NCBI GenBank assembly: GCA_963746255.1
Contig: CAVVAJ010000006.1
Location: 7,922-71,921 of the forward strand
DNA length: 64,000 nt
Direction of reading: 5' to 3'
DNA from: an uncultured Chloroflexia bacterium
GTDB lineage: Bacteria; Chloroflexota; Anaerolineae; Anaerolineales; UBA4823
Shown here piece by piece: positions 1 through 62,837 of the stretch (positions are counted from its first letter, which is position 1; the number at the start of each line of letters is the position of its first letter). The position numbers and the translations under genes are program-made. The notes under the pieces are model-generated. The model searched no databases, was not told the origin of the DNA, and saw nothing but the letters and a program-made list of their open reading frames with translations.

Positions 1-1500
1 TCGCAAGCATTCAGATTCATCTTACGATGGGGTCCTTACTCCCTGGATCCAGGTTTATTTAGTGACATGGATTCAGGTATCGTTATCGGTCATCTATTTA
101 GTGGCTTACTGGAGCTCACCCCGCAGATGGATGTGGTACCAGACATAGCCTACCGTTGGGAGATCCTGGAAGGTGGGCGTAAGTATATATTCCACTTGCG
201 GGAGGATGCGCGCTGGAGCGATAGAATGCCGGTGACCGCCCATGATTTTGTGTATGCCTGGAGGCGGCTGCTCAACCCTGCCACTCGATCGGACTCGGCC
301 AATCTTTTTTACGATATCAAGGGGGCTATGGCATTTCACCAGGGAGAAATGCCCAATTCAGAGCGTCTGGGGGTACGAGCGAGCACAGCATACACCTTGG
401 AAGTAGAGCTCGAAGCACCGGCAGGCTACTTCCTGCAGTTGATGGCTCACCCTGCAGCCTCTCCTGTCCCGCAGCATGCGATAGAGAGATGGGGTGAGGC
501 TTGGACCGAGTTGGGCAAGCAGGTGGTAAATGGACCATACCGGATCAAAGGCTGGCAACCTGGAAAGTTGCTGGCCCTAGAACGAAATCCCGAATACTAT
601 GGTCGCTGCAGCGGCAACCTGCAGATGGTTGAGATAACCTTTATGCCGCCATCGCGATGGCCTGATGAGGTTTCGATGTTCGATGCAGACAAGCTAGATG
701 TCCTGCAAATAGCATATTTCCCAACCGCCGAGATCAATCGCCTGCGGCGCCAACGCTCAGCGGAATATATCTCCGCACCGCTTCAAGATGTATTTTTCTT
801 TGTGATTAATACATCCAGAGCGCCTTTCGATAACCCAGACGTTCGTCGTGCTTTCATGCTGGCATTAGATAATGAAGCAGTTACGCAGACATCCGGCAGA
901 GGTGCAGTTATCCCTGCCTTAGGAGGACTGATCCCGCCCGGAATTCCAGGACACTCACCGGAGATTGGCTTACCTTTTGACCCGGGTGGAGCACAGGAGC
1001 TGATGGCACAGGCAGGTTATCCGGGTGGGCGCGGATTCCCCGTTGTCGAGGTATTGCTTTGGCCTGGTGCAGAGGTTTATCTAGAAAATATAATGAATCA
1101 ATGGCAGAAGGTCTTGGGGGTAAAGCATACTTGGGACTTCGCTCCAATTATCGAAGTTCCGGAAAAGGCAATCGGAAAGCCGTCCCATTTGGTATTACAA
1201 GGATGGGCAGCTGACTATCCCGATCCGGACAATTTTCTCCGGATAGGATTTCGCAAGGAGTTGAGCAGGTGGCACGGAGAGGTCTTCGATGAGTTGGTTG
1301 AACGTGCCCGGCATGCCCAAGACCAATGCGAGCGGATCAGGTTATATAAGCAAGCGGACAAGATCTTGATCGACGAGGCGGTAGTCTTACCCGTGGCGTA
1401 CTTTGTAGGCCACTACCTCGTACAACCATGGGTGAAAAATTTCCCCCTTTCTCCCATGGGAACCTGGTTCTTAAAAGATGTGGTCATCGAGCCGCATTAG
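1..1500 (+). CDS. ABC transporter substrate-binding protein, family 5 (peptide/nickel/oligosaccharide type), 5' end cut by window edge
   Basis: The reading frame is open from nt 1 (SQAFRFILRWGPYSLDPGLFSD precedes the listed Met at 67). Length and sequence character (..WSDRMPVTAHDFVYAWRRLLNP.., ..GWAADYPDPDNFL..) are typical of SBP family 5. Confidence 0.8.
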   Translation, partial: SQAFRFILRWGPYSLDPGLFSDMDSGIVIGHLFSGLLELTPQMDVVPDIAYRWEILEGGRKYIFHLREDARWSDRMPVTAHDFVYAWRRLLNPATRSDSANLFYDIKGAMAFHQGEMPNSERLGVRASTAYTLEVELEAPAGYFLQLMAHPAASPVPQHAIERWGEAWTELGKQVVNGPYRIKGWQPGKLLALERNPEYYGRCSGNLQMVEITFMPPSRWPDEVSMFDADKLDVLQIAYFPTAEINRLRRQRSAEYISAPLQDVFFFVINTSRAPFDNPDVRRAFMLALDNEAVTQTSGRGAVIPALGGLIPPGIPGHSPEIGLPFDPGGAQELMAQAGYPGGRGFPVVEVLLWPGAEVYLENIMNQWQKVLGVKHTWDFAPIIEVPEKAIGKPSHLVLQGWAADYPDPDNFLRIGFRKELSRWHGEVFDELVERARHAQDQCERIRLYKQADKILIDEAVVLPVAYFVGHYLVQPWVKNFPLSPMGTWFLKDVVIEPH

Positions 1501-1528
1501 ATTCCAGCTCTTACCAAATGGATTTAAA

Positions 1529-4500
1529 ATGACATCCCCCACCCTCCCCGAAGGCACCGTTACGTTCCTCTTTACGGATATCGAAGGTTCGACCCAGCTG
1601 CTGAGCCAGCTCCGTGAGCGGTACGCAGAATTATTAGCCGACCAGCGCCGCATACTCCGGGCGGCTTTCGCCCGCTGGCAAGGCCAGGAAGTCGATACCC
1701 AGGGAGATGCATTCTTTGTAGCCTTCCCACGCGCCACGCAAGCAGTTTGCGCCGCGGTGGACATACAACGCTCACTGACCACCCACACCTGGCCACAGGA
1801 TGTGGAGGTGCGGGTACGGATGGGCATACACACCGGTGAGCCCTTGAAAGCCGAAGAAGGCTATGTGGGCATGGACGTCCACCGGGCGGCGCGCATCGCC
1901 CACGTGGGACACGGCGGGCAGGTGCTGCTTTCCGAGACTACGACTGCGTTGGTGCGGGACGAGCTGCCTCAGGGGGTGAGCATGTTGGATTTAGGCGGTC
2001 ACCGGCTGAAAGACTTGAGCCAGCCAGAGTATATCCGCCAGTTGGTGATCGAGGGCTTGCCAGGGGAGTTTCCATCTTTGAAGTCACTGGAACTGCTCCC
2101 ACCAGAAATCAGCTTGGAACTGGGGGAGGTTAAATCGCCTGAATTTCTTGAAGAGCAGGTGGAAGAAAGGACCGCACCGGTATTTGTAGGGCGAGAACGA
2201 GAACTAGGACAACTTGAGGGCTTTATGGAGAAAGCCCTGCATGGAAACGGAGGGATGGTTTTCGTGACCGGGGGCCCTGGCCGTGGTAAGTCCGCACTGT
2301 TGGAAGCTTTTTCCAAGCGAGTGATGGCAGGATACTCAGAATTGTTGGCAGTGATGGGCGTTTGTAATGCTTACACAGGGATTGGTGATCCCTACCTGCC
2401 TTTCCGTGAAGTGTTGGGTATGTTAACGGGCGAGATAGAGTATAAGTGGGCGGCAGGAACCATTTCTCTTGAGCATGCTCGCCGTTTGTGGCTGTTCTCC
2501 CCGAATACAGCCAAAGCGTTGGTTGAATATGGGCCTGACCTAGTGGAGGCACTCCTTCCTGGTAAGAATCTGGTCGCCAGGATGGTATCAGTGGTACCGG
2601 ATCAGCGGAACTTGTTACAAGCGCTCAGGGCCTTGGCGGGACGGGAACGCCCTGGGCTTGGCGGTGTGGAACAGAGAGCTCTCTTCGAGCAATATTGGAA
2701 AGTACTAAGTGAACTTGCAGATAAACAGCCATTGTTGATAATGCTGGATGACTTGCAGTGGGCAGACAGCGCTTCACTCAACTTGCTTTTTCATCTGGGA
2801 CGGAATCTTGAAGGTAAACGCATATTGATCCTGGGCGCCTACCGTCCAGAAGAAGTTGTGCTACGACGAGGGGACAGCGAGCATCCTCTAGGGAGCATGC
2901 TTAATGAGTTTAAACGTCAATATGGTCAGGTATGGATCAGCCTGAGTGAGGCTCCTGAGAACGAAGGACGTCAATTTGTGGATGCTTACTTGGATAGCGA
3001 GCCAAATCGTCTGGGAGCCAGATTCAGGGAGGCTATGTTTTCCCACACCAGGGGGCATCCATTATTCACGGTTGAGTTATTGCGAGACCTACATGAGCGA
3101 GGTGACTTGATCAAGGATGAGCATGGACGTTGGGTGGAAGGGTCATCCCTGGATTGGGCGATACTGCCTGCACGGGTAGAGGGGGTTATCGAGACACGCC
3201 TGGGCCGGTTGGAGCCAAGGGCCATTGAAACCTTGGCCATTGCTAGTGTTATCGGAGAGGAATTTATCGCGGAAGTAATTGCGCAAGTTCAGAATATGGA
3301 TATCCGAGAATTAATCAACCTACTCAGTCGGGAGCTGGATAAAAAACACCGTTTGGTTAGCATACAAAGTGTGCAGAAAATCAATGATCAGCGTCTATCT
3401 GTCTACCGCTTTAATCACAATCTATTTCAGAAATATCTGTACAACAACCTGGATAAAGTGCGGCGGACGTATCTGCACGAAGATATCGCCAACATCTTCG
3501 AAAGTTTATTTGCAGACCAGAGTGATGAAATTGCTACGGAGTTAGCCTGGCATTTTCAAGAAGCGGGAATAACAGATAAAGCTATTCATTATCTCTACCA
3601 GGCAGGTGTTAAAGCCTTGGCCGCGTCCGCTAATGTTGAAGCGGTAACTCACTTTAGTCGTGGATTAAAGCTGGTCAATAGTTTGCCAGAAGGGATTGAG
3701 AGAGTTCAACAAGAATTCTATTTACAGAGCAGCTTATTCCTTCCCTTGGTATCTCTAAATGGATATGCCGATCCAGAAGTTAGCAGAGTAATTCAGAGAT
3801 CGTTAGAGCTTGGAAAGCAGGTGGGAAATCCACCTCAACTTTTTCTGCCAGTTCTTGGATTAGGTGCATATTATGGTGCTATGGGAGATTATCGGAACGC
3901 AAAAGATGTCTGGTCAGAGCTACTGGCTCTGGGGGAGGCTTCCGGAGACCCACTCTTACAAGCGCTCTCACATTGGCTCGGTTGGGTGCAGCTTATGTCA
4001 GGAGAACTTGATTTAGCATATGGACAAATGCGTGCCGTTATAGATGAGATTATATGGGAAGAACACATGGATCTACCGGTAGTGTACGGTGTAGATCCGG
4101 GCTCAACCTGTCGTTTGTGGGCGTCATGGGCATTATGGTTTCTTGGTTACCCCAAACAGGCGTGGAGCATGCTGCGAGAGGCGTTAATCACCGCTAAGTC
4201 CTTGAAGCATCCCCATACCCAGGCATTTGTCCTGGGGTTGGGATGTTATGTCCTGAGATGGATTCAGGAATACGAATTGCTCAATTTGTGGTCTCAGCAA
4301 GCCATCAAAGTTTCCAGAGAGCTCGGCAATAATAAATTTCTGGGGGATGGATTATTCAATCATGGCATTGTACTCGTTAGAGATGGGCAAATTAAAGAAG
4401 GGATTGATCTTATCAATCAAGGCATGTCCACAATTCTTGAGACAGGTACCAAGGTCGCTTATAGCGCTAATTTGGCGGAGTTGGCCAATATCTATCTCGA

Positions 4501-4855
4501 AGTCGGGGATACCGAAAATGGTCTTGCTACCGTAGAGCAAGCCTTGAATTGGGTAGAGGCGAGCGGCGAGCGTTTCATGGAGGCTGAAGTTAAACGGCTC
4601 AAGGGGGAACTTCTAATTGGATTGGGAGAAAGCGGTGAGCTAGTTGAAGGATGTTTTCAGGAAGCCATTGATATTGCCCAGCGACGATCCGCCAAATCTT
4701 TAGAATTGCGGGCGACGAGCAGTTTATGCCGTCTTCTGCGGAAACAGGGGCGAGATGAAGAAGCATATAAGAAGTTGGTAGCGATATATAGCTGGTTCAC
4801 AGAGGGTCTCGATACTCCTGACCTGGTGTATGCGAAATCGCTCCTATTGAAATGA
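1529..4855 (+). CDS. Class III adenylate/guanylate cyclase domain fused to AAA/STAND-type NTPase and TPR-like repeats
   Basis: The N-terminus has GTVTFLFTDIEGST..GDAFFVAF..RMGIHTGE (cyclase catalytic domain). A Walker A motif (GGPGRGKS) and Walker B motif (LLIMLDDLQWAD) follow, then a long helical-repeat C-terminus. The likely start is ATG 1529 (MTSPTLPEG..), not the upstream TTG at 1478, which overlaps the previous gene. Confidence 0.85.
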   Translation: MTSPTLPEGTVTFLFTDIEGSTQLLSQLRERYAELLADQRRILRAAFARWQGQEVDTQGDAFFVAFPRATQAVCAAVDIQRSLTTHTWPQDVEVRVRMGIHTGEPLKAEEGYVGMDVHRAARIAHVGHGGQVLLSETTTALVRDELPQGVSMLDLGGHRLKDLSQPEYIRQLVIEGLPGEFPSLKSLELLPPEISLELGEVKSPEFLEEQVEERTAPVFVGRERELGQLEGFMEKALHGNGGMVFVTGGPGRGKSALLEAFSKRVMAGYSELLAVMGVCNAYTGIGDPYLPFREVLGMLTGEIEYKWAAGTISLEHARRLWLFSPNTAKALVEYGPDLVEALLPGKNLVARMVSVVPDQRNLLQALRALAGRERPGLGGVEQRALFEQYWKVLSELADKQPLLIMLDDLQWADSASLNLLFHLGRNLEGKRILILGAYRPEEVVLRRGDSEHPLGSMLNEFKRQYGQVWISLSEAPENEGRQFVDAYLDSEPNRLGARFREAMFSHTRGHPLFTVELLRDLHERGDLIKDEHGRWVEGSSLDWAILPARVEGVIETRLGRLEPRAIETLAIASVIGEEFIAEVIAQVQNMDIRELINLLSRELDKKHRLVSIQSVQKINDQRLSVYRFNHNLFQKYLYNNLDKVRRTYLHEDIANIFESLFADQSDEIATELAWHFQEAGITDKAIHYLYQAGVKALAASANVEAVTHFSRGLKLVNSLPEGIERVQQEFYLQSSLFLPLVSLNGYADPEVSRVIQRSLELGKQVGNPPQLFLPVLGLGAYYGAMGDYRNAKDVWSELLALGEASGDPLLQALSHWLGWVQLMSGELDLAYGQMRAVIDEIIWEEHMDLPVVYGVDPGSTCRLWASWALWFLGYPKQAWSMLREALITAKSLKHPHTQAFVLGLGCYVLRWIQEYELLNLWSQQAIKVSRELGNNKFLGDGLFNHGIVLVRDGQIKEGIDLINQGMSTILETGTKVAYSANLAELANIYLEVGDTENGLATVEQALNWVEASGERFMEAEVKRLKGELLIGLGESGELVEGCFQEAIDIAQRRSAKSLELRATSSLCRLLRKQGRDEEAYKKLVAIYSWFTEGLDTPDLVYAKSLLLK

Positions 4856-4936: not shown

Positions 4937-5050
4937 CGATTCCCTTCTCCAATCTCCCCGAAGGCACCGTCACCTTCCTGTTCACGGATATCGAAGGCAC
5001 GACCAGCTGCTCAGTCAGCTCCGTGATTGGTACGCAGAATTATTAGTCGA
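4937..5050 (+). pseudogene. Orphan fragment duplicating the first ~35 codons of a class III cyclase (paralogue of gene 1529-4855)
   Basis: NLPEGTVTFLFTDIEGTT-(1 nt missing)-LLSQLRDWYAELLVDQR aligns at nucleotide level to 1546-1650. There is no in-frame start and one frame break, and similarity ends after about 110 nt. Confidence 0.75.
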
Positions 5051-5112
5051 CCAGCGCTGCACAGTTATACGGATCTTATCAACACCATTCAAGTGTATAT
5101 CCCTTGTATAAC

Positions 5113-23196: not shown

Positions 23197-24012
23197 ATGG
23201 GGATCAGCAAGCGTCTCGAACAAGCCCGGCGAGGCTACACTAAACACGATAAAACAGCTTCTGCCAATGCGCATAACCCGGAGCAAATCGCAAAAGTCTA
23301 TCGTGAAGCTTCGGAAGAGCATGGCGGTAGTGGATCTAAGTACATCGGCGATTTTATATTCGGTGGCTTAGACGGTATTATCACAACATTCGCAGTAGTC
23401 AGCGGAGTCGTAGGCGCAAATTTGGGCAGCAGTGTCATCCTCATCCTCGGCCTAGCCAACCTCTTCGCAGATGGCTTTTCTATGGCAGTTGGGGCTTATT
23501 TATCCTCCAAGAGTGAGAATGAATACTACCAAAAGGAACACCAGCGCGAGCTTTGGGAAATTGAAAATTTCCCTTCTGGCGAAAAAGCAGAACTGCTCGA
23601 GATTTACTTACATAAAGGCTACACTTCCGAGGAAGCGGATCAGCTGATCGCTATCCAAACCAGGTCTAAAGAACGCTGGGTCTCCGCGATGATGATCGAT
23701 GAACTGGGGATGATGAAGGACGACCGTTCTCCAGTCACCAGCGGTATCATCACATTCATTGCCTTCCTTGTTGCAGGCACAGTTCCGTTGCTGGTCTATT
23801 TTGCAGGACTTTTATTCCCGATCGCTGCAAACCAAGCCTTTTTGGTATCGATTTTGCTTTCCGGCATCGCCCTTTTCGGCCTGGGTGCTGGAAAGGTATT
23901 CGTTACCCGCCAAAATCCGATTCGCAGTGGTTTAGAAATGCTGCTGGTTGGTGGATTAGCTGCGAGCGTTGCATATGCAGTGGGAGCTTTATTAAGGTCT
24001 CTGGGACTATAA
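23197..24012 (+). CDS. VIT1/CCC1 family iron/manganese transporter
   Basis: ..GGLDGIITTFAVVSGVVGA.., a central acidic helical region (E..W.E...P..E..EL), and C-terminal TM helices. Confidence 0.8.
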   Translation: MGISKRLEQARRGYTKHDKTASANAHNPEQIAKVYREASEEHGGSGSKYIGDFIFGGLDGIITTFAVVSGVVGANLGSSVILILGLANLFADGFSMAVGAYLSSKSENEYYQKEHQRELWEIENFPSGEKAELLEIYLHKGYTSEEADQLIAIQTRSKERWVSAMMIDELGMMKDDRSPVTSGIITFIAFLVAGTVPLLVYFAGLLFPIAANQAFLVSILLSGIALFGLGAGKVFVTRQNPIRSGLEMLLVGGLAASVAYAVGALLRSLGL

Positions 24013-24037: not shown

Positions 24038-24805
24038 GTCGGTATCGGTACTCCCGGTATGATAGACCCTCATAAAGGTGTGATTCGGCGGGCAGTCAAT
24101 CTCGATTGGCAGGAATTGCCGCTGCGAAGCCTGTTAGAAGAGCGATACAACCTGCCATGCTATATCACCAATGACTGTCAAGCGGCCGCATTAGGAGAGT
24201 ACACTTTCGGGAAAAATTCTGCCATAGCAAATTTGGTCGTACTGAAAGTGGGACGTGGTATCGGCTCGGGGATTGTATTGAATGGCCAATTGTACTATGG
24301 CGACGGCTACAGCGCTGGGGAGATCGGGCACCTGGTGGTTATCGAAGATGGTGAGACATGTGCTTGTGGAAACCGCGGTTGTCTCGAAACCGTCGCCAGC
24401 ACCCGTGCTTTGGCGAAACGAGTCAGGGAGATCGCTCAAAGAAATCCGAACTCAAAATTGTTTCAAATTGCTACAACCCCAACTGAAATCAATATGGATA
24501 TTATCCTACATGCTTTAGAAGCTGGTGATGAGGACATAAAAAATGTCATTGCGGAAGCTGGATATTACCTGGGTGTTGCGGTAGCCTGCCTTGTCGGCGT
24601 GGTAAACGCTCAACACATTTTCATCGCTGGAAGCGCAGCCCGTTTTGGTGATACGCTGCTCGCACCTATCAAGAACACTATGCGGAGACATTCGATGTCT
24701 ATCCTGGCGGATGAAACAAATGTCAACTTCAGCTCGTTAGGACAGGATATAGTGATCAAAGGTGCAGCGTCCTTACCGCTGGCAAACGAACTTCAACTTA
24801 TCTGA
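24038..24805 (+). pseudogene. ROK family protein, 5'-truncated (lacks the N-terminal ATP-binding ~70 aa)
   Basis: Homology begins at VGIGTPGMIDPHKGVIRRAVNLDW. This aligns to residues ~75 onward of the intact ROK at 25608 (GVGIGIPGQVNTKDGIVRDAVNLGW). The upstream frame runs straight into the VIT1 stop codon, so the DxGGT phosphate-1 region is absent. The ROK zinc motif CACGNRGCLE is present. Confidence 0.7.
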
Positions 24806-26585: not shown

Positions 26586-27052
26586 CATCTATACAATACA
26601 TGCATTTTACGTGTTCTCGCGAGAAATACCTATGAAACAATCTGATAAGAAATATTTCCAAAAACCGGCTCTCATTCCACCACAAGTTTTAGATTTCCAA
26701 CCCGCGGTGTTGTACAACGGGGCGTTCCGCCACTCGATAACTAACTCTGGTACAAGTATTCCGGATATTATGATCCTGGAGTGTAAAGACGGGGACATTT
26801 CCCAGTATGACGCTCGTTAAACCTCAGGATCACCCCGATGCTGGTATCGATCAATTATTACGATTGGAAGTATGTTTTAACATTATAATTATCTATCTAA
26901 GTTGATTTGGTGATAAATTTCAAAAACGAGCAGCGATAAGATGCGAGATAAGTTGTATAAGGAGGTGGGCAGAAGGAAATACTGTACCAGATAAAGACCC
27001 GGTTAGAAAGCATCATGGATAAAAAACATAACTATGTTAGGAGATAAAGAAG

Positions 27053-29581
27053 ATGCGTAAAGCAATATTACTATCCATTGTAATTTTATTGGCTTTACTG
27101 ATGGTAGGATGTGCATCAGAAGCCACGACCGAAGCACCTCCGCCGCCAGAGCAAGAAGAGCCTGCTCCACCTGAAACCGCCGAAGAGGTAACGATAACCA
27201 TAGAGAGTTGGAGAAACGATGACCTGACCATCTGGCAGGATACGATTATCCCAGCTTTTGAAGCCAAATATCCGAACATCAAAGTTGTGTTTGCTCCAAC
27301 AGCTCCAGCAGAGTACAACGGCGTGCTGAACACCAAGCTTGAAGGTGGAACAGCCGGTGATTTGATCACCTGCCGTCCGTTCGATGCCTCTCTAGCGTTG
27401 TTTGACCAGGGACACCTGGCATCGATCAACGATCTACCAGGTATGGAGAACTTCAGCTCCGTAGCCAAGAGCGCCTGGATCACCGATAATGGCTCGGACG
27501 TTTTCTGTGTTCCAATGGCATCCGTGATCCACGGCTTCTTCTACAATGTTGATGCATTCACTGAACTCGGTTTGGAAGAACCAACCACCAGGGATGAGTT
27601 CTTTGCTGTGCTGGATGCCATCAAGGCCGATGGTACCTACGATCCCCTAGGGATGGGCTCTGCCGACCAGTGGGAAGCAGCCACAATGGGCTTCCAGAAC
27701 ATCGGTCCGAATTACTGGAAAGGCGAAGAAGGCCGCTTAGGGCTGATCGCCGGCACCGAGAAATACACAGATCAGCAGTACGTCGACACATGGGCAGAGC
27801 TGGCGCGCTGGGCTGACTACATGCCGTCTGGTTATGAGGCAGTCAAATACCCAGATGCGCAGAGCCTGTTCACCCTGGGTCAAGCTGCGATCTACCCGAC
27901 TGGCTCCTGGGAAATCTCCGTTTTTGAAGATCAAGCTGACTTTGAAATGGGCATCTTCCCGCCACCGCTGGCAAACGAGGGTGACACCTGCTTCATCAGC
28001 GATCATACCGACATCGCCATGGGCATGAACACCGCCACTGAAAATCCTGAAGCAGTTGAGACATTCCTGGAATGGATGACCACTCCTGAATTCGCTGAGC
28101 TTTACAGCAACGCTTTACCTGGATTCTTCACTTTGTCCAACCACATGGTCAATCTTGATGATCCGCTGGCACAGGAATTTATGAGCTGGCGAGAGTCATG
28201 CGAGGAGACCATTCGCAACTCCTACCAGATCCTCTCACGTGGTGAGCCAAACCTAGAGAATGAGTTGTGGCGTGTCAGTGCTGCCGTGATCAATGGGAGC
28301 CTGACGCCTGAAGAGGCAGCCCAGGAAATCCAGGATGGTCTTGACTCGTGGTACTCACCGACTGGTCAGCCGGAAGTGGAAGCGCCTCAAGAACCGACCG
28401 AGGAGGTCACCCTAACCATCGAAAGCTGGCGCAACGACGACCTGACCATCTGGCAGGATACCATCATCCCGGCTTTCGAAGCCAAGCACTCCAACATCAA
28501 AGTTGTGTTTGCTCCCACAGCCCCAGCAGAGTACAACGGCGTGCTGAACACCAAGCTTGAAGGTGGAACAGCCGGTGATTTGATCACCTGCCGTCCGTTC
28601 GATGCCTCTCTAGCGTTGTTTGACCAGGGACACCTGGCATCGATCAACGATCTACCAGGTATGGAGAACTTCAGCTCCGTAGCCAAGAGCGCCTGGATCA
28701 CCGATAATGGCTCGGACGTTTTCTGTGTTCCAATGGCATCCGTAATCCACGGCTTCTTCTACAACGCTGATGCCTTCACTGAACTCGGTTTGGAAGAACC
28801 AACCACCAGGGATGAGTTCTTTGCTGTGCTGGATGCCATCAAGGCCGATGGTACCTACGATCCCCTAGGGATGGGCTCTGCCGACCAGTGGGAAGCAGCC
28901 ACAATGGGCTTCCAGAACATCGGTCCGAATTACTGGAAAGGCGAAGAAGGCCGCTTAGGGCTGATCGCCGGCACCGAGAAATACACAGATCAGCAGTACG
29001 TCGACACATGGGCAGAGCTGGCGCGCTGGGCTGACTACATGCCGTCTGGTTATGAGGCAGTCAAATACCCAGATGCGCAGAGCCTGTTCACCCTGGGTCA
29101 AGCTGCGATCTACCCGACTGGCTCCTGGGAAATCTCCGTTTTTGAAGATCAAGCTGAGTTTGAAATGGGCATCTTCCCGCCACCGCTGGCAAACGAGGGT
29201 GACACCTGCTTCATCAGCGATCATACCGACATCGCCCTGGGTATGAACACCGCAACAGAGAATCCAGATGCGGCCAAGATCTTCTTGGAATGGATGACCA
29301 CCTCTGAGTTCGCCGAGCTTTATAGCAACGCTTTACCTGGATTCTTCACTTTGTCCAACCACATGGTCAATCTTGATGATCCGCTGGCACAGGAATTTAT
29401 GAGCTGGCGAGAGTCATGCGAGGAGACCATTCGCAACTCCTACCAGATCCTCTCACGTGGTGAGCCAAATCTAGAGAACGAGTTGTGGCGTGTCAGTGCT
29501 GCCGTGATCAACGGGAGTTTGACGCCCGAAGAGGCAGCCCAAGAAATCCAGACTGGTCTTGACTCGTGGTACACACCTTAG
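27053..29581 (+). CDS. Lipoprotein consisting of two tandem, near-identical ABC sugar-binding (family 1, MalE-like) modules
   Basis: Lipobox LLMVGC. Residues ~44-449 and ~450-842 are the same ~406-aa SBP module (EEVT(I/L)TIESWRNDDLTIWQDTIIPAFEAK...DSWY(S/T)P). The gene sits directly upstream of two sugar permease genes. Confidence 0.85.
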   Translation: MRKAILLSIVILLALLMVGCASEATTEAPPPPEQEEPAPPETAEEVTITIESWRNDDLTIWQDTIIPAFEAKYPNIKVVFAPTAPAEYNGVLNTKLEGGTAGDLITCRPFDASLALFDQGHLASINDLPGMENFSSVAKSAWITDNGSDVFCVPMASVIHGFFYNVDAFTELGLEEPTTRDEFFAVLDAIKADGTYDPLGMGSADQWEAATMGFQNIGPNYWKGEEGRLGLIAGTEKYTDQQYVDTWAELARWADYMPSGYEAVKYPDAQSLFTLGQAAIYPTGSWEISVFEDQADFEMGIFPPPLANEGDTCFISDHTDIAMGMNTATENPEAVETFLEWMTTPEFAELYSNALPGFFTLSNHMVNLDDPLAQEFMSWRESCEETIRNSYQILSRGEPNLENELWRVSAAVINGSLTPEEAAQEIQDGLDSWYSPTGQPEVEAPQEPTEEVTLTIESWRNDDLTIWQDTIIPAFEAKHSNIKVVFAPTAPAEYNGVLNTKLEGGTAGDLITCRPFDASLALFDQGHLASINDLPGMENFSSVAKSAWITDNGSDVFCVPMASVIHGFFYNADAFTELGLEEPTTRDEFFAVLDAIKADGTYDPLGMGSADQWEAATMGFQNIGPNYWKGEEGRLGLIAGTEKYTDQQYVDTWAELARWADYMPSGYEAVKYPDAQSLFTLGQAAIYPTGSWEISVFEDQAEFEMGIFPPPLANEGDTCFISDHTDIALGMNTATENPDAAKIFLEWMTTSEFAELYSNALPGFFTLSNHMVNLDDPLAQEFMSWRESCEETIRNSYQILSRGEPNLENELWRVSAAVINGSLTPEEAAQEIQTGLDSWYTP
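27182..29578 (+). repeat. In-frame tandem direct duplication, period 1218 bp (two copies)
   Basis: Copy 1 (27182-28399) aligns with copy 2 (28400-29578). Long identical blocks (about 27300-28010 and 28120-28255 against their +1218 partners) alternate with blocks full of mostly synonymous differences. Confidence 0.9.
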
Positions 29582-29605: not shown

Positions 29606-29641
29606 TATACTCGGCGGTAGTACGTACTACCGCCGAGTATA
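29606..29641. promoter_or_regulatory. 36-nt perfect palindrome (18-bp stem) between SBP gene and permease genes
   Basis: TATACTCGGCGGTAGTAC|GTACTACCGCCGAGTATA lies 25 nt after the SBP stop codon and 29 nt before the permease start. Confidence 0.6.
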
Positions 29642-29669: not shown

Positions 29670-30596
29670 GTGGAAAAAAAGCAACATCGCAAACCCTTTC
29701 CTGTTTACATTCTGGTTTTCCTGACTCCAGCAGTAATTATATATACGCTCTTTATGGTTTACCCGCTTCTTGACTCGTTACGCCTCAGTTTTTTTACTCT
29801 TAACGAACAGAATCAAGAGATATTCGTCGGAATCCAGAATTACATCACACTATTTACAGATTCAAACTACGCGCCCCGTTTTTGGGGAGCGCTTAAAAAT
29901 AATCTTGTATTTTTCGCCATTCACATGGTGGTTCAGAATTCAATCGCTTTGCTGTTGGCTGCGTTGTTATCTTCAGGTATCAGGGGAAGCAACGTTTACC
30001 GTTCGGTGCTTTTTATGCCTACAGTTCTGTCAGTCGTTATTATTGGTTTTATTTGGCAGTTGATTTTAAATCCCCTCTGGGGGGTTTCTGAGAGCATCTT
30101 GCAAGCTGTGAATTTAGAATCTCTTTTCAAGCCCTGGCTGGGTTTACCAGAAACTGCCTTGATAACCATATCGCTGATTTCCGTGTGGCAGTTTGTTGGA
30201 ATTCCAATGATCTTATTCTTCGCAGCCCTGATAGGAATCCCAGATGAACTAATGGAAGCTGCTCGGGTAGATGGTGCCTCCGGCTGGCAGACCTTCTGGC
30301 GAATTAAGTTCCCCCTCATTCTGCCATCGGTCGGTATCGTCGCCATTCTAACTTTCGTTGGCAATTTCAACGCTTTCGACCTGATATATACAATGAAAGG
30401 TGCTAACGCAGGCCCGGATTTCTCCACCGACATCATGGGCACTTTGTTTTACCGTACCTTCTTCGGCCAACAACTACAGTTAGGCAATTCGACAATGGGT
30501 GCAACGGTTGCTGCAATGATGTTCCTAATTATCCTGTCGGGTGTGCTGATCTACATGTTCTTATGGCAACGGCGTATTCAAACAGTAGAAATGTGA
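29670..30596 (+). CDS. Carbohydrate ABC transporter permease (MalF/UgpA-like)
   Basis: It has multiple TM segments and the EAA loop ..EAARVDGASGWQTFWRIKFPL... GTG start. Confidence 0.85.
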   Translation: MEKKQHRKPFPVYILVFLTPAVIIYTLFMVYPLLDSLRLSFFTLNEQNQEIFVGIQNYITLFTDSNYAPRFWGALKNNLVFFAIHMVVQNSIALLLAALLSSGIRGSNVYRSVLFMPTVLSVVIIGFIWQLILNPLWGVSESILQAVNLESLFKPWLGLPETALITISLISVWQFVGIPMILFFAALIGIPDELMEAARVDGASGWQTFWRIKFPLILPSVGIVAILTFVGNFNAFDLIYTMKGANAGPDFSTDIMGTLFYRTFFGQQLQLGNSTMGATVAAMMFLIILSGVLIYMFLWQRRIQTVEM

Positions 30597-30605
30597 GAAT
30601 GAGTT

Positions 30606-31484
30606 ATGATAACTGCAGCTAAGGACCACAGAACAAGAGGCATGCCTTTTCAATATCGAATCCGGAGATTTATTGGAAGGTTAATACCACACCTACTTCT
30701 ATTAAGTTATTTGGCAATTGTACTTTTCCCGATATTCTTGATCATCATCAATTCGTTCAAAAGCCGTAAAGCAATCTTTGGAATGCCATTTCAGCTACCA
30801 ACCCCTGAAACCTTCAGCCTGATTGGTTATGAAACGGTCATTTTTCGGTCGACTTTTCATATCTACTTCATGAACAGTATCATCGTCACTGTCGTTGCCC
30901 TGATATTTACATTGTTGATCGGCGCTATGGCTGCCTTTGCTTTGGCGGAATATCCCTTTCCTGGAAATGCCTTGCTGGGTCTCTACCTGGCTATTGGGAT
31001 CATGATCCCGATTCGCCTGGGTACGGTGGGAATATTAAAACTAATGGTGAATTTCAGCTTGGTTAATACGTTAATTGGATTGATCTTGATCTATATTGCC
31101 CAAGCGTTGCCCCTGACAATATTTATATTGTCTCAATTTTTCCGTCAGGTGCCAAAAGAATTAAAAGATGCTGCCCGAATTGACGGAGCCAGTGAATATC
31201 GCATTTTCTTCCTCGTAGTTCCGCTGGTGCGACCAGCAATAGGGGCGATTGGCATCTTTACCATGATCCCTATCTGGAATGACCTGTGGTTCCCCTTGGT
31301 CGTTGCACCCAGCGCTAAAACCGCGACAGTGACCCTGGGTGTCCAGCAGTTCCTGGGTCAATTTGTCAGTGATTGGAACGCCGTACTCTCTTCTTTGACA
31401 CTTGCGATGGTACCGATCCTCATAATATATCTAATTTTCTCCAGGCAGCTAATCCGCAGTATCACTGCAGGTGCTCTCAAGTAA
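30606..31484 (+). CDS. Carbohydrate ABC transporter permease (MalG/UgpE-like)
   Basis: EAA loop ..DAARIDGASEYRIFFLVVPLVRP... 292 aa, multi-TM. Confidence 0.85.
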   Translation: MITAAKDHRTRGMPFQYRIRRFIGRLIPHLLLLSYLAIVLFPIFLIIINSFKSRKAIFGMPFQLPTPETFSLIGYETVIFRSTFHIYFMNSIIVTVVALIFTLLIGAMAAFALAEYPFPGNALLGLYLAIGIMIPIRLGTVGILKLMVNFSLVNTLIGLILIYIAQALPLTIFILSQFFRQVPKELKDAARIDGASEYRIFFLVVPLVRPAIGAIGIFTMIPIWNDLWFPLVVAPSAKTATVTLGVQQFLGQFVSDWNAVLSSLTLAMVPILIIYLIFSRQLIRSITAGALK

Positions 31485-32555: not shown

Positions 32556-33550
32556 AAATTGGTATTATGAGCTTCGCCCACCACCATGCCGATGCTTACA
32601 TCCAGAACCTGTCCACGATCCCACAGGTAGACCTGATTGGCGTAGCCGATGAAGAAGCGCAGCGTGGAGAGCGTATCGCGCACCAGCATGCAATACCCTT
32701 TTTCCACTCCTATGATGACTTGTTGGCAGCCAAACCTGATGGTGTGATCATCTGTTCGGAAAATAGCAAGCACCGCTATATGGTAGAGTTGGCGGCTGAT
32801 GCTGGTGTAAATGTGCTTTGTGAGAAGCCGCTCGCTACAACCGTGGAGGATGCTCGAGCGATCGTTAGCACTTGCGAGAAGGCTGATGTTGTACTCATGA
32901 CCGCTTTCCCAATGCGATTCAGCACGCCTTTAATAGAGGTGAAGGCACGTCTGGACGCTGGTGATTTTGGTCAGATCTTCTGCTTCAACGCCACCAACCA
33001 GGGCCAGTTACCTGTGGTCTATCGTGAATGGTTCGTGGACAAAACCCTGGCGGGAGGTGGCGCATTGATGGACCACACTGTTCACCTTGTGGACATTATG
33101 CGCTGGTATTTAGGTGAAGAGGTTAGCGAAGTTTATGCGCAAACCAACCACATTTTACATGCGCATGAGGTGCAAGTGGAGACAGGTGGTCTGGAGATGA
33201 TCACTTTTGAAAGCGGGATATTCGCCACCATCGATGCCAGTTGGAGCCGTCCCTCCTATTGGCCATCCTGGGGAGGACTTACATTTGAGATGGTCACAGA
33301 ACGGGGCGCGATCTTGGTGGATGCATTCCGCCAGAACCTGATCATATACCGCCATGAATGGGGGCGCGCCGGTTGGGCATATTGGGGATCAGATGCTAAC
33401 CAGGCCATGGTTAACGAATTTGTGGTTGCCATCCGAGAGAAGCGCCAGCCGTTCGTAACTGGCTACGATGGTTTAAAAGCCATTGAAGCGGTCGAAGCAG
33501 CCTATATATCCGCGGAGCGTGGACAGCCCATCAGATTACCCCTTAATTAA
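32552..33550 (+). CDS. Gfo/Idh/MocA family oxidoreductase
   Basis: MKIGIMSFAHHHA... and LCEKPLA. It overlaps the previous stop by 4 nt (ATGA). Confidence 0.8.
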   Translation: MKIGIMSFAHHHADAYIQNLSTIPQVDLIGVADEEAQRGERIAHQHAIPFFHSYDDLLAAKPDGVIICSENSKHRYMVELAADAGVNVLCEKPLATTVEDARAIVSTCEKADVVLMTAFPMRFSTPLIEVKARLDAGDFGQIFCFNATNQGQLPVVYREWFVDKTLAGGGALMDHTVHLVDIMRWYLGEEVSEVYAQTNHILHAHEVQVETGGLEMITFESGIFATIDASWSRPSYWPSWGGLTFEMVTERGAILVDAFRQNLIIYRHEWGRAGWAYWGSDANQAMVNEFVVAIREKRQPFVTGYDGLKAIEAVEAAYISAERGQPIRLPLN

Positions 33551-33599
33551 GATGTACATTGAACAAGGTATTTTCACTAAAGCCGTTTTCAGAGCGCTA

Positions 33600-33885
33600 G
33601 TGACGTACGGTCACTACATTGCTAGCCTAGCTAATCGCTGGCGCCGTTACATTACTTGGCTACATAGCCGGACTTTTCCTATCTCTGCAGATCAAGCCTT
33701 CACGATCTCCATCCTGCTTTCCGTTATCACCCTTTTCTACGTGGGTGCTGCTAAGGTCTTCGTCACCCACAAGAATCCGATCCTCAGTGGTTTGAAAATG
33801 CTGCAGGTTGGTGGATTAGCTGCCGGCGTTGCCTATACAGCAGGGCTTTATTACCCTCTCTGGGATTGGAATTCTAAAGTACAAG
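33600..33885 (+). pseudogene. Remnant of the 3' end of a VIT1/CCC1 transporter gene
   Basis: ..FPISADQAFTISILLSVITLFYVGAAKVFVTHKNPILSGLKMLQVGGLAAGVAYTAGL aligns with the C-terminus of the intact VIT1 gene (FPIAANQAFLVSILLSGIALFGLGAGKVFVTRQNPIRSGLEMLLVGGLAASVAYAVGAL). The nucleotide sequences also align (e.g. GGTTGGTGGATTAGCTGC is shared). The 5' two-thirds of the gene is absent. Confidence 0.8.
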
Positions 33886-33919
33886 TGGTTTTTTCTCTTA
33901 TAATGCAGAATTCTACCTG

Positions 33920-34998
33920 ATGCGCGATAAATTCAGCCGGGTTCTTAGAACTTTCATGGAAACTCTATTCACAACGTCGGGCTTTCCCAAATCAATGGGA
34001 AACCAGGCAAAAAAATCATGGATAAATTCAACGTTAGACTGGCTGCTCGGATCCGGCGAGCCATGGACCCGCTACCGCACGCTTATCGATATCCTGGATC
34101 AACCTGAGGATGATCCGGATGTCCGCCAAGCCCGGCAAGCGATGCTCGCACATCCGCAGGTGTAATGAACTCATTTCTCACGCAAACCGGCGCTTAGAAC
34201 TGCCCATCAAACGCCACAATGATGCCAGCCACCCGATTTACAGCATGGCAACGCTAGCCGATTTCGGTTTACGGCTTGGCGATCCAGGCATGGACGGGAT
34301 CATCACATCTATCACTGGGCACCAATCTGCCGATGGAGGCTACCTGTCAACAGTTTTGATCCCGAAACCATTTGGCGGAAGCGGCGAACCTCAATTATCC
34401 TGGGTCTTATGTGATGCTCCTACCCTTTTATATTCCGTACTCTTATTTTCTCGGCCAGATTATAGTGCGTTCAAAACAGGGCTAAATCAGCTCACCGGCT
34501 TAGTTCAGGAAAACGGCTGGCGCTGTTCAGCGTCACCGGATTTGGGTAAATTCAGAGGACCAGGTCGTCGTGAAGACCCCTGCCCAATTGCTAATGTCTA
34601 TGCGCTTAAAGCGCTTGCGATCGCTCCCGAATATTCGGATACAGCAGCGACAAGGATTGGTACGGAAACTATCCTTCACCATTGGGAGATCCAAAAAGAG
34701 CGTAAATATCTATCTTTTTGGAATGGGTACTGATTTCCACAAAATAAAGTACCCGTTCGTCTGGTACGATATTCTCCATGTCGTGGATGTCCTGAGTCGT
34801 TACCCTTTCCTTTACCACGATGCCCGCTTCTTGGATATGGTGGAGACATTGGTTCACTTGTCGGAGGATTGTGAGCGATACACTGCTGCAGCTATGTATC
34901 GAGCTTGGAAGGGTTGGTCATTTGCCGACAAAAGGAACCCTTCACCCTGGCTGACATTCCTTGTCCACCGTATTAAGAAGCGCGTTAACCTTCTCTAA
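33920..34998 (+). pseudogene. Conserved hypothetical protein (possibly alpha/alpha-toroid, prenyltransferase-like) broken into three frames
   Basis: Three overlapping ORFs sit in successive +1 frames (33920-34165, 34110-34733, 34570-34998). The first junction is repaired by removing 1 nt at about 34160-34166 (..AHPQV|NELISHA..). The second is repaired by removing one copy of a 4-nt tandem duplication TATC TATC at 34707-34714 (..KERKYLFGMGTDF..). The product name is uncertain. Confidence 0.6.
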
Positions 34999-55934: not shown

Positions 55935-57956
55935 ATGAGCCAAAATCCCAACGATAGTACTCCCATGCCGAATACGGTTCATTCTAGTAGGTCTAGCCCT
56001 AATATTGGCGTATATATCTGTCACTGCGGGACGAATATCGCAGGAGTTGTGGATGTTGAAGCGGTATCGGATTTCGCCTCACAACTTGAAGGGGTAAAAA
56101 TTTCCCGTACATATCCTTATATGTGCTCGGACCCCGGACAAGAGTTGATCAAAGATGATGTCATCAACCAAAACTTAGACCGGGTCGTTGTCGCCTCGTG
56201 TTCACCATTGATGCATGAGACAACTTTTCGAGCCGCCTGCGGCGAAGCTGGATTAAATCCTTTCCTTTTCCAGATGACCAATATCCGCGAGCACTGTTCA
56301 TGGGTAACCGACGATCGAGCTAGTGCAACGCAAAAGGCAAAATCTCTGGTTTCAGCTGCGATACACCGCGTGGCTCATCATCTACCATTGAACACCCGCC
56401 AGGTAGATGTGGGACAATCCGTACTTATAGTGGGCGGTGGCATTGCTGGAATTGAGGCTGCTCTGCGTTTAGCCGATTCCGGCAAGCATGTCTACTTGGT
56501 TGAGCGACAGCCTAGTATCGGTGGGCACATGGCCCAGCTGTATAAAACATTCCCCACCCTAGATTGTGCAGCTTGAATACTCACCCCGAAAATGGTGTCC
56601 GTCGGACGCCACGAAAACATCACTCTGCTGAGCTACAGTGAGGTTGAATCTGTCCAGGGTTATGTCGGCAATTTCACTGTCACTATCAGGAAAAATCCTA
56701 GGTACATAAACGAAGATTTGTGTACTGGCTGCGGTACGTGCGTAGAGAAATGTCCTTGGAAAAAAATACCTTCAGAGTTTGATCTGGGTAAGGGGAATCG
56801 ACCAGCCATATATTTTTCTTTTGCCCAAGCCGTTCCCCGTATTCCCGTCATCGATGTAAAAAACTGTGCATATTTCCGGAATGGTAAATGCCGGGCGTGT
56901 GAGAAATTCTGCCAAACTGGAGCAATTGACTTCCAACAACAAGCAGAGGTGGTCGAATTCAACATTGGCACGATCATCTTAGCAACGGGATTCAAAGATT
57001 TCGATCCGGGTAAAGCACCGCAGTATGGATATCCAGTACTGGATGATGTCCTCACCGGGATGGAATTTGAACGTATCGTTAACACAGGTGGTCCAACAGT
57101 TGGAGAAATCCGCACCGTAGATGGCCGAAAACCAGAACGGATTGCGATCCTGCATTGTGTTGGCTCACGCGATAAGGATCTTCACGAGTACTGCTCCCGC
57201 GTATGTTGTATGTACTCCTTGAAATTAGCGAAACTTATCCGGGATTATAGTGACGCGGATGTTGTCGAGTTCTATCGTGATATGCGTACATTTGGGAAAG
57301 GGTATGAGGTTTTTTATAAACACGTTCAGGAACAAGGGGTTGAATTCGTTCGCTTTGAGAAAGCTATCGCCGTCAGCCGCCATAATGGCCGGCTGCAAGT
57401 TTCAACAAAGGATATATACAGCGGCGAAGAACTACATACTCTTGTCGATATGGTTGTGCTCAGCACTGGATTTGAGCCCCAAGATGATCAATTAAAGACA
57501 GCCAAGAAGTTCGGCGTCAGCCTCAGCCCCGATGGGTTCTTCATGGAGAAACACCCTAAGTTAGCTCCTGTAGAAACCGCAACGGACGGTGTCTACTTAG
57601 CCGGTGCTTGCCAAAGTCCTAAAGATATTCCGGATAGTGTTGCACACGGTAGTGCAGCTGCGGCAGCAGCACTTTCATTGATGGATGCAGGACATGTAGA
57701 ACTAGAACCTTTTACTACGTATGTAATACCTGAAAAGTGTGGCAGCTGCCACACTTGTGAAGGCCTCTGCCCCTATGGAGCCATACAGATGGTGCCTTTC
57801 GAGGATCGGCTTGTAGCGTCAATCAACGAAGTTCTCTGCAAGGGTTGTGGGGCTTGTGCTGCAGCTTGCCCTTCTAGTGCAGTAGTGCAGCATGGTTTTA
57901 CTGATGCTCAAGTCCTAGCAGAGATTGAAGGCGCCTTATTGGAGAGATTGCAATGA
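55935..57956 (+). CDS. hdrA: Heterodisulfide reductase subunit A (HdrA)-like flavoprotein, predicted selenoprotein (TGA 56574-56576 = Sec)
   Basis: An RBS GAGGAGG precedes ATG 55935. Motifs: VYICHCGTNIAG, FAD motif VGGGIAGIEAAL, ferredoxin inserts CTGCGTCVEKCP and CGSCHTCEGLCP..CKGCGACAAACP. ORFs 55914-56576 and 56592-57956 are in the same frame and read ..FPTLDCAA-U-ILTPKMVSVGRH.. across the TGA. Confidence 0.85.
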
Positions 57957-60900
57957 ATTTGGAGAAAATCAGGACTGGAGTGTATGTTTGCCACTGTGGC
58001 AGTAATATCGCGTCTACAGTTGATGTAGATGATGTCGCGAACTATGCCAGTGATTTACCAGATGTATCGCTTACTCGTCACTATACATATATGTGCTCTG
58101 ACCCGGGGCAGGACTTGATTAAGGATGATATCCAGACACATGCGTTAAACCGGATCGTCGTCGCGTCATGCTCTCCCCTGATGCACGAAGAAACCTTTAA
58201 AAATGCTTGTAAAGCTGCAGGTCTCAACCCCTTCTTTTTCCAGATGGCAAATATCCGCGAACATTGCGCGTGGGTGATTGATGACCGAGTTCAGGCAACT
58301 GCCAAAGCAAAAAATATGGTTTCTGCAGCTGTTCGTCGTGTCCGCCACCATGCACCACTATCTATGCGCAGTGTGGATATGCAGCAATCCGCGCTAATCG
58401 TCGGTGGCGGAATCGCTGGTATTGAGGCTGCACTTCGCTTAGCCGATGCCGGTAAGCAAGTGTATTTGGTGGAACGCGAGCCCAGTATTGGCGGCCATAT
58501 GGCTCAGCTCTATAAAACATTTCCTACTCTAGATTGTGCGGCTTGAATACTTACACCAAAAATGGTGTCCGTTGGACGCCACAAGAATATCCAGCTTTTG
58601 AGCTACAGCGAAGTTAAATCGATATCGGGCTACGTCGGTAATTTCAAAGCCAAGATTCAGCGCTATCCCCGTTACATCGAAGAAGAAAAATGCACTGGCT
58701 GTGGAAAATGTGCTCAAGCCTGCCCGGTGGATACGGTAAATACTTTCGATGTTGGGATCAGCACACGTAAAGCCGCCTATCGCCATTCCGCCCAGGCAGT
58801 GCCCGGCGCTTATGTTATCGAGAAACAAGGTATAGCCCCTTGTAGGGATGCCTGTCCGACAGACCAACGCGCTCAAGGTTATATTGCATTGCTGCGGCAA
58901 AAACGCTATGCAGATGCGTATTGGGCAATTCGCCGAGAACATCCTTTCCCATCAGTTTGCGGGCGGGTCTGTAATCACGCCTGCGAAGATGCCTGCAGCC
59001 GGGGAATATTTGATTCGCCGGTTAATATTATGGGGATTAAACGCTTCATCTCGGATTGGGCTTTTGAGCATCGCAGTGAGTTAGCTTTTACCCAGGATAA
59101 ATCACTGATCGGCTCACCTTTTAAATCCGACCCTAAACCGACCGGCAAAAAAATCGCCATCATCGGTGCAGGACCTGCTGGCCTGACCGCTGCTCTAGAT
59201 CTCGTCCGGTTAGGGCACAAAGTTACAGCTTATGACTCTTCGCCGGTCGCTGGCGGGATGATGCGGGTCGGCATACCCCCGCACCGGTTGCCGCATAAAT
59301 ACCTAGATTGGGAAATTCAACAGATTCTGGAAGAAGGTGTGGAGCTGGAGCTCAATACTAGGGTTGATGATATCGCAAGTCTGCTTGATAACGGCTATGA
59401 TGCTGCCTTGATCGCTTCTGGGGCACACATCGCGAAAAAACTCCCCATTCGTAACTCCAATCACCCCGATAACCTCTTGAGCCTGGATATCCTGCGAAAT
59501 GCATGCTTAGGAAAGAGTCATGATCTAGCCGGTAAAAAGGTAGTAATCCTCGGAGGTGGCAATGTTCGCGTTAGACACTGCCCGTACAGTGCTGCGTCTC
59601 GGTGCGTCAGAAGTACGGCTAGCATGTCTCGAAACCCGAGGTGAAATGCCTGGTTTCGACTGGGAGATCTTGGTCGCTGTTGAAGAAGGAATCGAGATTT
59701 GTCCGGGACGGACTTTTCACGAAATAATCGTTGAAAATGAGCGTATAACTGGGATCCGCTGCTCGAGTGTAATGTTTCATGGTTTCAAGCGCAGCCGGCC
59801 AACTTTCGATATTATCCCAGAAACAGAACACATTTTGCCGGCAGATATCGTTGTTTGGGCGATTGGTCAGCGACCAGACTTCTCCTTCTTACCGCTGGAT
59901 GGCAGCATTAATATCCGTTATCCAATTGGTATCCAGTCTGATGAAGAGATGCTTACCACCAAGCCGGGCGTCTTTACTGCTGGTGACGTGCGCCGCGGGG
60001 TAACATTCTTCGTGGTCGATGCGATCGGAGAGGGTCATAAAGCTGCCCGTAGTATTGATCGCTTCTTGCGCGGTGAGCAGGGGCTCCGCGAACCGAGCAA
60101 ACCTCCCGTTGTCCAATTGGACGCGCAAACGATCGAAAACAAATTAAATGCAGGTGTTGCCAATCGCATGGAAAGAGTACCAATAAAAAGCATACCGGTA
60201 AACCAAAGACACCATAATTTTGAGGAAGTAGACCTGGCGCTAACAGAGGCAGAAGCGCTCGCCGAAGCCGAACGCTGTTTACGCTGTGGAATATGTTCTG
60301 AGTGCCTTGAATGTGTTGTCGCGTGCGAACGAGGTGCCATCGACCATAATATGCAGTCACACTACCTCAATCTAGATGTTGGAACCATCGTATTGGCAAC
60401 CGGCTTTAAAGATTTTGACCCCCGTGCTGTCCCAGAGCTCGGTTTTGGACAAATCGATAATGTGATCACGGCAATGGAATTTGAAAGGCTGATTAATTCA
60501 AGCGGCCCAACCGAAGGCAAAGTCTTGCTGAAGAATGGGCAAGCACCAAAGAGTGTCGCAATTTTGCATTGCGTCGGCAGCCGGGATGATCGCTACCATG
60601 ATTATTGCTCACGGGCTTGCTGCATGTACTCACTAAAGCTCGCCCAGCTCGTGCATGATTATGTCAATGCTGAAGTATTCGAGATCTACCGCGATATGCG
60701 TACTTTTGGCAAGGATTATGAGGAATTTTTCAACCGCACCCGTGAAAAAGGGATCAACTTCTACCATGGGGTAGTCAAATCAATTCAGCGTCAGAATGGC
60801 AAGCTCCTTGTTTCGTGGGACGAGAATTTCTTTAATCAACCTGACCGCGTTGCTGTAGATATGGTAATCCTCGCGACCGGTTTCGAACCCCAGGATGATA

Positions 60901-62822: not shown

Positions 62823-62837
62823 TTTACATCAGGCCTG

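Follow-up and report, generated by a model that had tools for sequence, protein, structure and literature searches.

Two binding modules behind one lipid anchor

We analysed a stretch of 64,000 nucleotides (nt) from an uncultured Chloroflexia bacterium (contig CAVVAJ010000006.1), hereafter the window, whose positions serve as coordinates throughout. The gene under study is the open reading frame (ORF) at 27053–29581 on the + strand, which encodes an 842-amino-acid (aa) lipoprotein with two full family-1 solute-binding modules. A base-by-base comparison at offset 1218 revealed an in-frame direct repeat at approximately 27150–28360, with its partner at 28368–29578. The Pfam families SBP_bac_1 and SBP_bac_8 each matched the protein twice, and the scores of 203 and 188 bits compare with curated cut-offs of 26 and 27. 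Together with the predicted structure, these results bore out the original prediction, made from the letters of the stretch and its reading frames, that two full binding modules stand behind one lipoprotein signal in an in-frame repeat of 1218 bp.

A Shine-Dalgarno–like AGGAG can be read from the sequence at 27039–27043 (+), 9 nt before the ATG. The translated lipoprotein signal peptide (27053–27112, +) ends in a lipobox, M-V-G-C, which was assigned by its sequence pattern and presumably makes Cys20 the lipidation site; this predicted residue was unchanged in all 31 aligned two-module proteins (hereafter doubles), and AlphaFold2 predicted signal-peptide residues 2–18 to be helical. The signal peptide is followed by a Pro/Glu-rich tether of aa 21–43 (27113–27181, +), predicted to be disordered, with a predicted local distance difference test (pLDDT) value below 50 for residues 18–42. 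Codon comparison with the +1218 partner revealed that the final ~13 codons of this tether (27143–27181) are a strongly diverged homologue of the linker between the modules. Since the linker aligns with these codons, the duplicated unit appears to be the mature protein plus the end of the tether.

Module 1 (aa 44–436; 27182–28360, +) was identified as a complete family-1 fold by Pfam, AlphaFold2 and Foldseek, its SBP_bac_1 match spanning profile positions 10–304 of 307. It is joined by a 13-aa Pro/Glu-rich linker, TGQPEVEAPQEPT (aa 437–449; 28361–28399, +), with a predicted pLDDT below 50 for residues 435–443, to module 2 (aa 450–842), which was recognised by Pfam and AlphaFold2 and occupies 28400–29581 (+) together with the stop codon at 29579–29581. 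The linker is orthologous to those of the five closest orthologues (P0003–P0007). The modules share 96.7% aa identity. In the AlphaFold2 model (31 homologues; mean pLDDT 81.9), they are predicted to form two complete binding-protein folds of the two-lobed Venus-flytrap type, as in carbohydrate-binding proteins of family 1 (CUT1, cluster D), and pLDDT values below 50 are confined to the tether and the linker. A Foldseek comparison of the modelled modules with the PDB matched each of them to single-module oligosaccharide binders, NagB2 (7eho) and RafE (2heu, 6pql), with target-normalised template modelling (TM) scores of 0.79–0.84 per module and E values of 1e-21 to 1e-24; none of the PDB matches shown covered both modules at once. 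Each module also carries a conserved Cys pair, C313/C383 in module 1 and C719/C789 in module 2, which possibly forms a disulfide. In module 1 of P0007 both conserved cysteines are gone together (C to R and C to S).

Alternation of identical and diverged blocks

The repeat period of 1218 nt exceeds the longest period handled by Tandem Repeats Finder (500), and the comparison at offset 1218 was used instead. Copy-to-copy identity per 100 nt was 84% at 27200–27299, 96–100% across 27300–27999, 82% at 28000–28099 and 97–99% across 28100–28299, and fell off past 28360, the point at which copy 2 ends in its stop codon; the mosaic seen in the original prediction was thus reproduced by self-comparison along the repeat. 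Of the 1179 nt in a module, 56 differ between the copies, and 40 of these fall on third codon positions. A codon comparison along the repeat from 27170 onwards gave 37 synonymous and 17 non-synonymous differences, in agreement with the earlier statement that they are mostly synonymous, and both replacements named there are present: YP/HS at aa 73–74 versus 479–480, and PEAVET/PDAAKI at aa 332–337 versus 738–743.

The nt differences concentrate in three islands (27182–27304, 28019–28105 and 28252–28355), outside of which there are a cluster of four differences at 27526–27556 and a singleton at 27940, both absent from the original prediction. Perfect runs extend over 27305–27525 (221 nt), 27557–27939 (383 nt) and 28106–28251 (146 nt). 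The earlier description of three dense blocks alternating with identical stretches was confirmed, but the third block ends at about 28360 and not at 28400, since 28361–28399 is the linker. Permutation of the differences gave a mean longest identical run of 92 nt and a 99.9th percentile of 198 nt, and 0 of 20000 permutations reached the observed 383 nt (P<5e-5); the index of dispersion was 6.06, versus 0.89 expected. The clustering of the module differences cannot be chance.

Read along the + strand, the repeat begins with diverged island A (27182–27304, partner 28400–28522), which holds 21 of the 22 differences in the analysis block of the same letter, and continues with homogenised tract B (27305–28018, partner 28523–29236), which includes the perfect 383-nt run. 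Diverged island C (28019–28105, partner 29237–29323) contains 19 nt differences and encodes a loop and helix, NPEAVETFLEWMTTPEF versus NPDAAKIFLEWMTTSEF. It is followed by homogenised tract D (28106–28251, partner 29324–29469), with 0 differences in 146 nt, and by a partly diverged 3′ island E (28252–28360, partner 29470–29578), with 10 differences in 109 nt.

Synonymous divergence (dS) was compared in five analysis blocks. The modules differ at 22 of 130 nt in block A (27179–27308; dS 1.16), 5 of 710 in block B (27309–28018; dS 0.019), 19 of 90 in block C (28019–28108; dS 2.07), 0 of 140 in block D (28109–28248; dS 0) and 10 of 109 in block E (28249–28357; dS 0.38), a contrast of ~60–100 fold between blocks. 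Between species, dS is 1.0–2.3, so that blocks A and C are as diverged as species. Block B, with its 5 differences between the gene's own copies, differs from other species at 111–160 positions.

Age of the duplication and competing explanations

Comparison of the DNA with that of the five closest orthologues, P0003–P0007, revealed that all of them have the 406-codon period and the orthologous linker. The number of differences between module 1 and module 2 is 9, 20, 130, 131 and 206 nt in these orthologues and 56 nt in the window, which indicates that the extent of homogenisation varies by lineage. The within-gene difference of 4.7% at the nt level contrasts with 18–22% between species. For the window's module 2, the closest sequence in blocks A and C was module 2 of P0004 (18/130 and 13/90, respectively), ahead of its own module 1 (22/130 and 19/90), and block A of the window's module 1 was nearest to the single-module relative L010 (11/130). 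P0003 and P0004 are 5% apart at the nt level; the two modules of P0003 are identical in the interior, whereas over the first 60 nt and the last ~40 nt each still agrees with its counterpart in P0004. Judging from these sequences, the interior of P0003 was homogenised after the P0003/P0004 split, and conversion is here caught between sister lineages. The P0004 protein was found exactly in three independent assemblies.

A search of 5.8 billion proteins retrieved ~30 doubles of 843–900 aa at 65–88% identity, two proteins of ~1280 aa and many single-module proteins of ~465–475 aa. Application of a module hidden Markov model to these relatives and to 80 genome loci identified 40 doubles, at least 34 of them distinct, and 4 triples. 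The named sources are nearly all Chloroflexota metagenome-assembled genomes (MAGs) of Anaerolineae and Caldilineae, and several doubles lie on contigs of 72–368 kb in MAGs whose names suggest long-read assembly. Across 34 doubles, the identity between modules within a protein is 83–100%, usually above the identity to any other protein, while in close protein pairs module 1 groups with module 1 and module 2 with module 2. Quartet sites supported grouping by position over the opposite grouping by 90 to 0 in pairs with ≥90% identity, by 199 to 34 at 80–90% and by 205 to 130 at 70–80%. The residue asymmetry between modules 1 and 2 was directional in 17 representatives less than 85% identical to each other (score 55 versus −0.1 ± 14 in label-swap permutations; P ~0.0005). 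The shared period, linker and positional signal place the duplication before the divergence of the window's subgroup, and to judge from the sequences it is probably shared beyond that subgroup; for distant doubles the signal is suggestive only.

We favour, with a probability of roughly 85%, an old tandem duplication whose modules have been repeatedly homogenised by gene conversion and which comprises two functional modules for the same ligand. The signs of concerted evolution were all found: similarity within the genome, duplication before divergence, and long identical tracts alternating with diverged segments. The original prediction of old tandem copies under repeated gene conversion is upheld by the dS of the blocks, the positional neighbours, the common period and linker, and the P0003/P0004 pair. 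Under this reading, a mature binding protein with its tether end would have been duplicated in tandem and in frame before six or more lineages split, between which the orthologous modules are now 18–23% apart at the nt level. Homologous recombination between the 1.2-kb direct repeats, presumably of the RecA type, would have repeatedly copied one module onto the other as intragenic gene conversion. In the genome of the window, interior tracts would have been homogenised recently, while the edges of the repeat, and ~90 nt near its centre, would have escaped and kept their old divergence. Unequal exchange between the repeats may have given rise to the one- and three-module forms of the relatives.

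Several points weigh against this reading. A look-up of the exact 842-aa protein gave no match elsewhere, and the window's junction and linker were absent in two metagenome scans, one exact and the other fully degenerate at synonymous positions; the two-module copy number of this particular gene rests on a single assembly. In the orthologue search, envisaged in the original prediction as a guide to the ancestral form, the five closest orthologues are all doubles; the closest relative, L010, is single-module, either because a module was truly lost or because its short-read assembly collapsed, and the module tree intermixes singles with doubles. Because of this intermixing, we do not claim a single origin of all Chloroflexota doubles. 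The positional signal between the window and distant doubles (<80% identity) is weak, with 10 positional versus 6 anti-positional sites. Nor are the islands purely ancient, since even in A and C the modules of one gene are grouped with each other by many quartet sites. Finally, module 2 carries a P-to-S replacement at a column that is 97% Pro, which could matter.

The differences between modules 1 and 2 in the 34 doubles pile up at module aa 1–10, 30–37, 281–300, 321–330 and 381–393, and the islands of the window coincide with these family-wide variable segments. The directions of the differences are consistent across doubles, by 19:0 at column 295 and by 15:0 at columns 37 and 288. The segment of island C remains diverged in many other doubles, and L021, from a MAG that looks long-read, exhibits a mosaic similar to that of the window. 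The 5′ edge is diverged even in the otherwise fully homogenised P0003, P0006, L004 and L031, as would be expected where homology ends.

Selection may also keep the islands different because of position-specific roles of the modules, with recombination between repeats acting as a copy-number dial (one, two or three modules) that tunes receptor dosage. One module alone may dock productively on the permease, for example, or the modules and linker may contact each other. The shared direction of the differences at module aa 1–10, 30–37 and 281–300 in many divergent doubles speaks for such selection, as does island C of module 2, in which the comparison of the window with P0004 gave a non-synonymous divergence (dN) of 0 and a dS of 1.76. 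In P0003 and P0006, however, island C has been overwritten by the module-1 type, apparently without harm, and an edge effect combined with fast-evolving segments could look similar. We regard this alternative as doubtful.

Another explanation holds that the duplication was recent and that islands A, C and E were afterwards pasted into one copy from the DNA of a related lineage. At 43 of the 56 sites that differ, both states do occur in other species, KY/KH-type haplotypes are patchily common to several species, and the operon itself resembles an inserted cassette. Nevertheless, no sampled lineage is near-identical to the islands of either copy, the best matches (13/90 and 18/130) being close to the genome-wide species divergence; the islands match the same-position modules of relatives, as vertical descent predicts, and the common linker and period show that the duplication is old. 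Such an import is accordingly judged highly improbable.

We place marginally less weight still on recurrent independent duplication (birth and death), by which within-gene similarity would reflect the youth of the duplicates. It is excluded for the window's clade, in which the period is identical, the linker orthologous and the signal positional, and the significant asymmetry between modules 1 and 2 among the 17 representatives argues against it more widely. The wider family is less uniform: one-, two- and three-module proteins are intermingled in the module tree, linker length varies, the period ranges from 403 to 425 codons, and the linkers of P0021 and P0014 repeat the end of the leader. 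Independent duplication is possible in some distant lineages.

The least probable explanation is an assembly artefact, with one module or two identical ones turned by the assembler into a tandem or into mis-phased strain variants: short reads cope poorly with 1.2-kb repeats in which up to 383 nt in a row are identical, L010 is single-module in a short-read contig and the exact gene was not found in any independent assembly, but the junction is in frame, the unique linker is orthologous to those of five other species, the island dS of 1.2–2.1 is far over strain-level polymorphism, copy-specific island states are common to P0004 module 2, identical in three independent assemblies, and large contigs from seemingly long-read MAGs carry doubles with a similar mosaic. 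Because island dS exceeds 1, a strain chimera was rejected as the origin of the islands. With island dS values of 1.16 and 2.07 and an orthologous linker, the earlier view that neither one recent duplication nor a simple assembly artefact would produce this pattern was sustained.

Among binding proteins at large, most representatives at 50% identity are single-module; a family 32% identical to the present one (P0133) is likewise doubled. By these sequence comparisons, doubling is rare among binding proteins generally, yet recurrent and common in the window's Chloroflexota clade. The original description of a doubled binding protein as unusual is thus right for binding proteins as a whole but not for this family, in which doubles and triples are common.

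Other architectures were observed among the relatives. Triples of ~1280–1310 aa occur at L006 (7977–11828; P0001) and L008 (7782–11720) and in P0002, whose two linkers are near-identical, as expected if its third module is the product of unequal exchange. Hetero-tandems of ~880–900 aa combine one module of this family with a very divergent second half that resembles a binding protein; they include P0049–P0051, P0058, P0060, P0061, P0064, P0069–P0071, P0073 and P0077, and the loci L018 (7926–10646), L019 and L032. P0042 resembles a module-module-other arrangement, and proteins of the P0202 type have a Peripla_BP_6 domain fused to an SBP_bac_1 domain.

Function, operon context and known systems

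The dN/dS ratios of 0.03–0.18 within and between genes indicate purifying selection. In 31 doubles, 147 positions are invariant and carry the identical residue in both modules. When column conservation was used as a proxy for the involvement of module differences in the binding site, 12 of the 13 aa differences in the window fell in variable columns, the exception being P74/S480. Given these shared invariant positions and the location of the differences, both modules look, at the level of sequence, like working receptors for the same ligand; they most likely bind the same ligand and feed a single permease pair. A change in specificity, which the original prediction had entertained, is therefore unlikely. 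An effect on kinetics or dosage is possible: by analogy with the tandem importer GlnPQ, the benefit, for a cell that lacks a periplasm, would be that each lipid anchor offers twice the receptor density or avidity, and not a wider specificity.

Regarding the ligand, phmmer detected similarity to RafE (E 2e-22), and matches to NCBIfam equivalog models scored 47–51 bits, below their cut-offs of 299–400. The JGI name of relatives, which refers to raffinose, stachyose and melibiose, was set aside as generic, with ~21% identity to RafE and NCBIfam scores far below the cut-off. The context of orthologous operons suggests an oligosaccharide, possibly with N-acetyl-hexosamine, the presence of a PIG-L deacetylase and other genes in these operons being a hint of an N-acetylated sugar.

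Two ATP-binding cassette (ABC) permease genes, encoding proteins of 308 and 292 aa with Pfam BPD_transp_1 matches, are located at 29670–30596 and 30606–31484 (+), and this pair is syntenic in the orthologous loci. Downstream of the binding-protein gene there are also two Gfo/Idh/MocA genes, and ROK, SIS and ROK genes lie upstream, a context in keeping with a putative sugar ligand. The operon contains no ATPase gene, as is usual for CUT1 systems with a shared ATPase. Between the stop codon of the binding-protein gene and the start of the first permease gene, we found a perfect 16-bp stem with a 4-nt loop (29606–29641, +), and an analogous hairpin follows the gene in L010. The hairpin may act by stabilising the upstream mRNA or by attenuating read-through, which would raise the output of binding protein above that of permease.

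Orthologous operons additionally carry a MarR-ROK regulator, an uncharacterised protein of 465–467 aa, a PIG-L deacetylase and a major facilitator superfamily transporter. In the window, the first ROK gene (24059–24805; 248 aa) is without the MarR-type helix-turn-helix N-terminus of the 395-aa orthologues in L081 and L086. The orthologues have the genes for the 465–467-aa protein and the PIG-L deacetylase between those for the ROK kinase and the binding protein; both are missing from the window, where a 467-nt AT-rich spacer (26586–27052) occupies their site. The sugar operon, ~9.9 kb long, lies between two direct copies (23815–23980 and 33675–33840) of the 3′ end of a VIT1 gene, the iron-transporter gene itself lying at 23197–24012 and a fragment ORF at 33483–33920; the repeat copies have 79% nt identity, and 70% aa identity over 57 residues. 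This flanking repeat suggests that the operon was brought in, or rearranged, as a cassette.

Elsewhere in the window, two further pairs of diverged direct repeats with 74–90% identity, 1539–1652 versus 4949–5061 and 57510–57686 versus 60921–61097, are both spaced ~3410 nt apart. The first lies in or beside an adenylate-cyclase/AAA_16/TPR gene (1478–4855). The second lies inside Fer4/Pyr_redox_2 genes (56592–57956 and 59556–61400) and thus probably reflects paralogous domains. The region 62001–64000 has a GC content of 63%, versus ~47% in the rest of the window, and 63876–64000 (−) matched the actinobacterial small RNA Ms_IGR-5 in Rfam with 53.9 bits, the match being cut by the window end.

To our knowledge, tandem binding domains have been well studied only for amino-acid importers of the GlnPQ type. 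The tandem domains of Lactococcus lactis GlnPQ act largely independently via a 14-aa linker (PMC8025302). The present protein resembles GlnPQ in having two complete binding domains per polypeptide, connected by a short and flexible linker of 13 aa (GlnPQ, 14 aa), and both occur in bacteria that need membrane-tethered receptors. In GlnPQ, however, the domains are fused to the transmembrane domain, whereas here they are encoded by a separate lipoprotein gene, with the stop codon at 29579–29581, the hairpin and an 88-nt spacer preceding the permease ORF. Moreover, the GlnPQ domains belong to family 3 (amino-acid) and differ in specificity and affinity, whereas the modules described here belong to family 1 and are 96.7% identical. 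The single-module RafE/MsmE and NagB2/NgcE proteins (PDB 2i58, 6pql, 7eho) share the fold and family of the modules, at ~20–22% identity; the solved relatives are all single-module.

Long-lasting concerted evolution of prokaryotic paralogues is considered rare, with 26 genes reported, including tufA/tufB and mtrA, and no solute-binding protein among them (PMC6053082). The modules share with the tufA/tufB type a within-genome similarity higher than that to orthologues, a duplication before speciation and mosaic conversion tracts. They differ in that the paralogues reported there are separate genes, whereas the repeats here are modules within one ORF, at a copy number of one to three, and conversion between them is therefore intragenic. 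In our literature searches, neither a tandem or duplicated family-1 sugar-binding lipoprotein nor intragenic concerted evolution of such a protein was described. Tandem domains (GlnPQ) and concerted evolution (tuf) are each known; tandem family-1 sugar-binding lipoproteins are apparently undescribed.

In short-read MAGs, genes of this kind are easily collapsed or assembled with a wrong copy number. The findings point to a clean prokaryotic case of intragenic concerted evolution, in a Chloroflexota clade of sugar importers that would place two or three near-identical modules on each lipid anchor and keep them alike despite saturated synonymous sites. This clade would serve as a natural experiment in how additional tethered receptors affect an ABC importer, be it through dosage, avidity for oligomeric substrates or capture rate.

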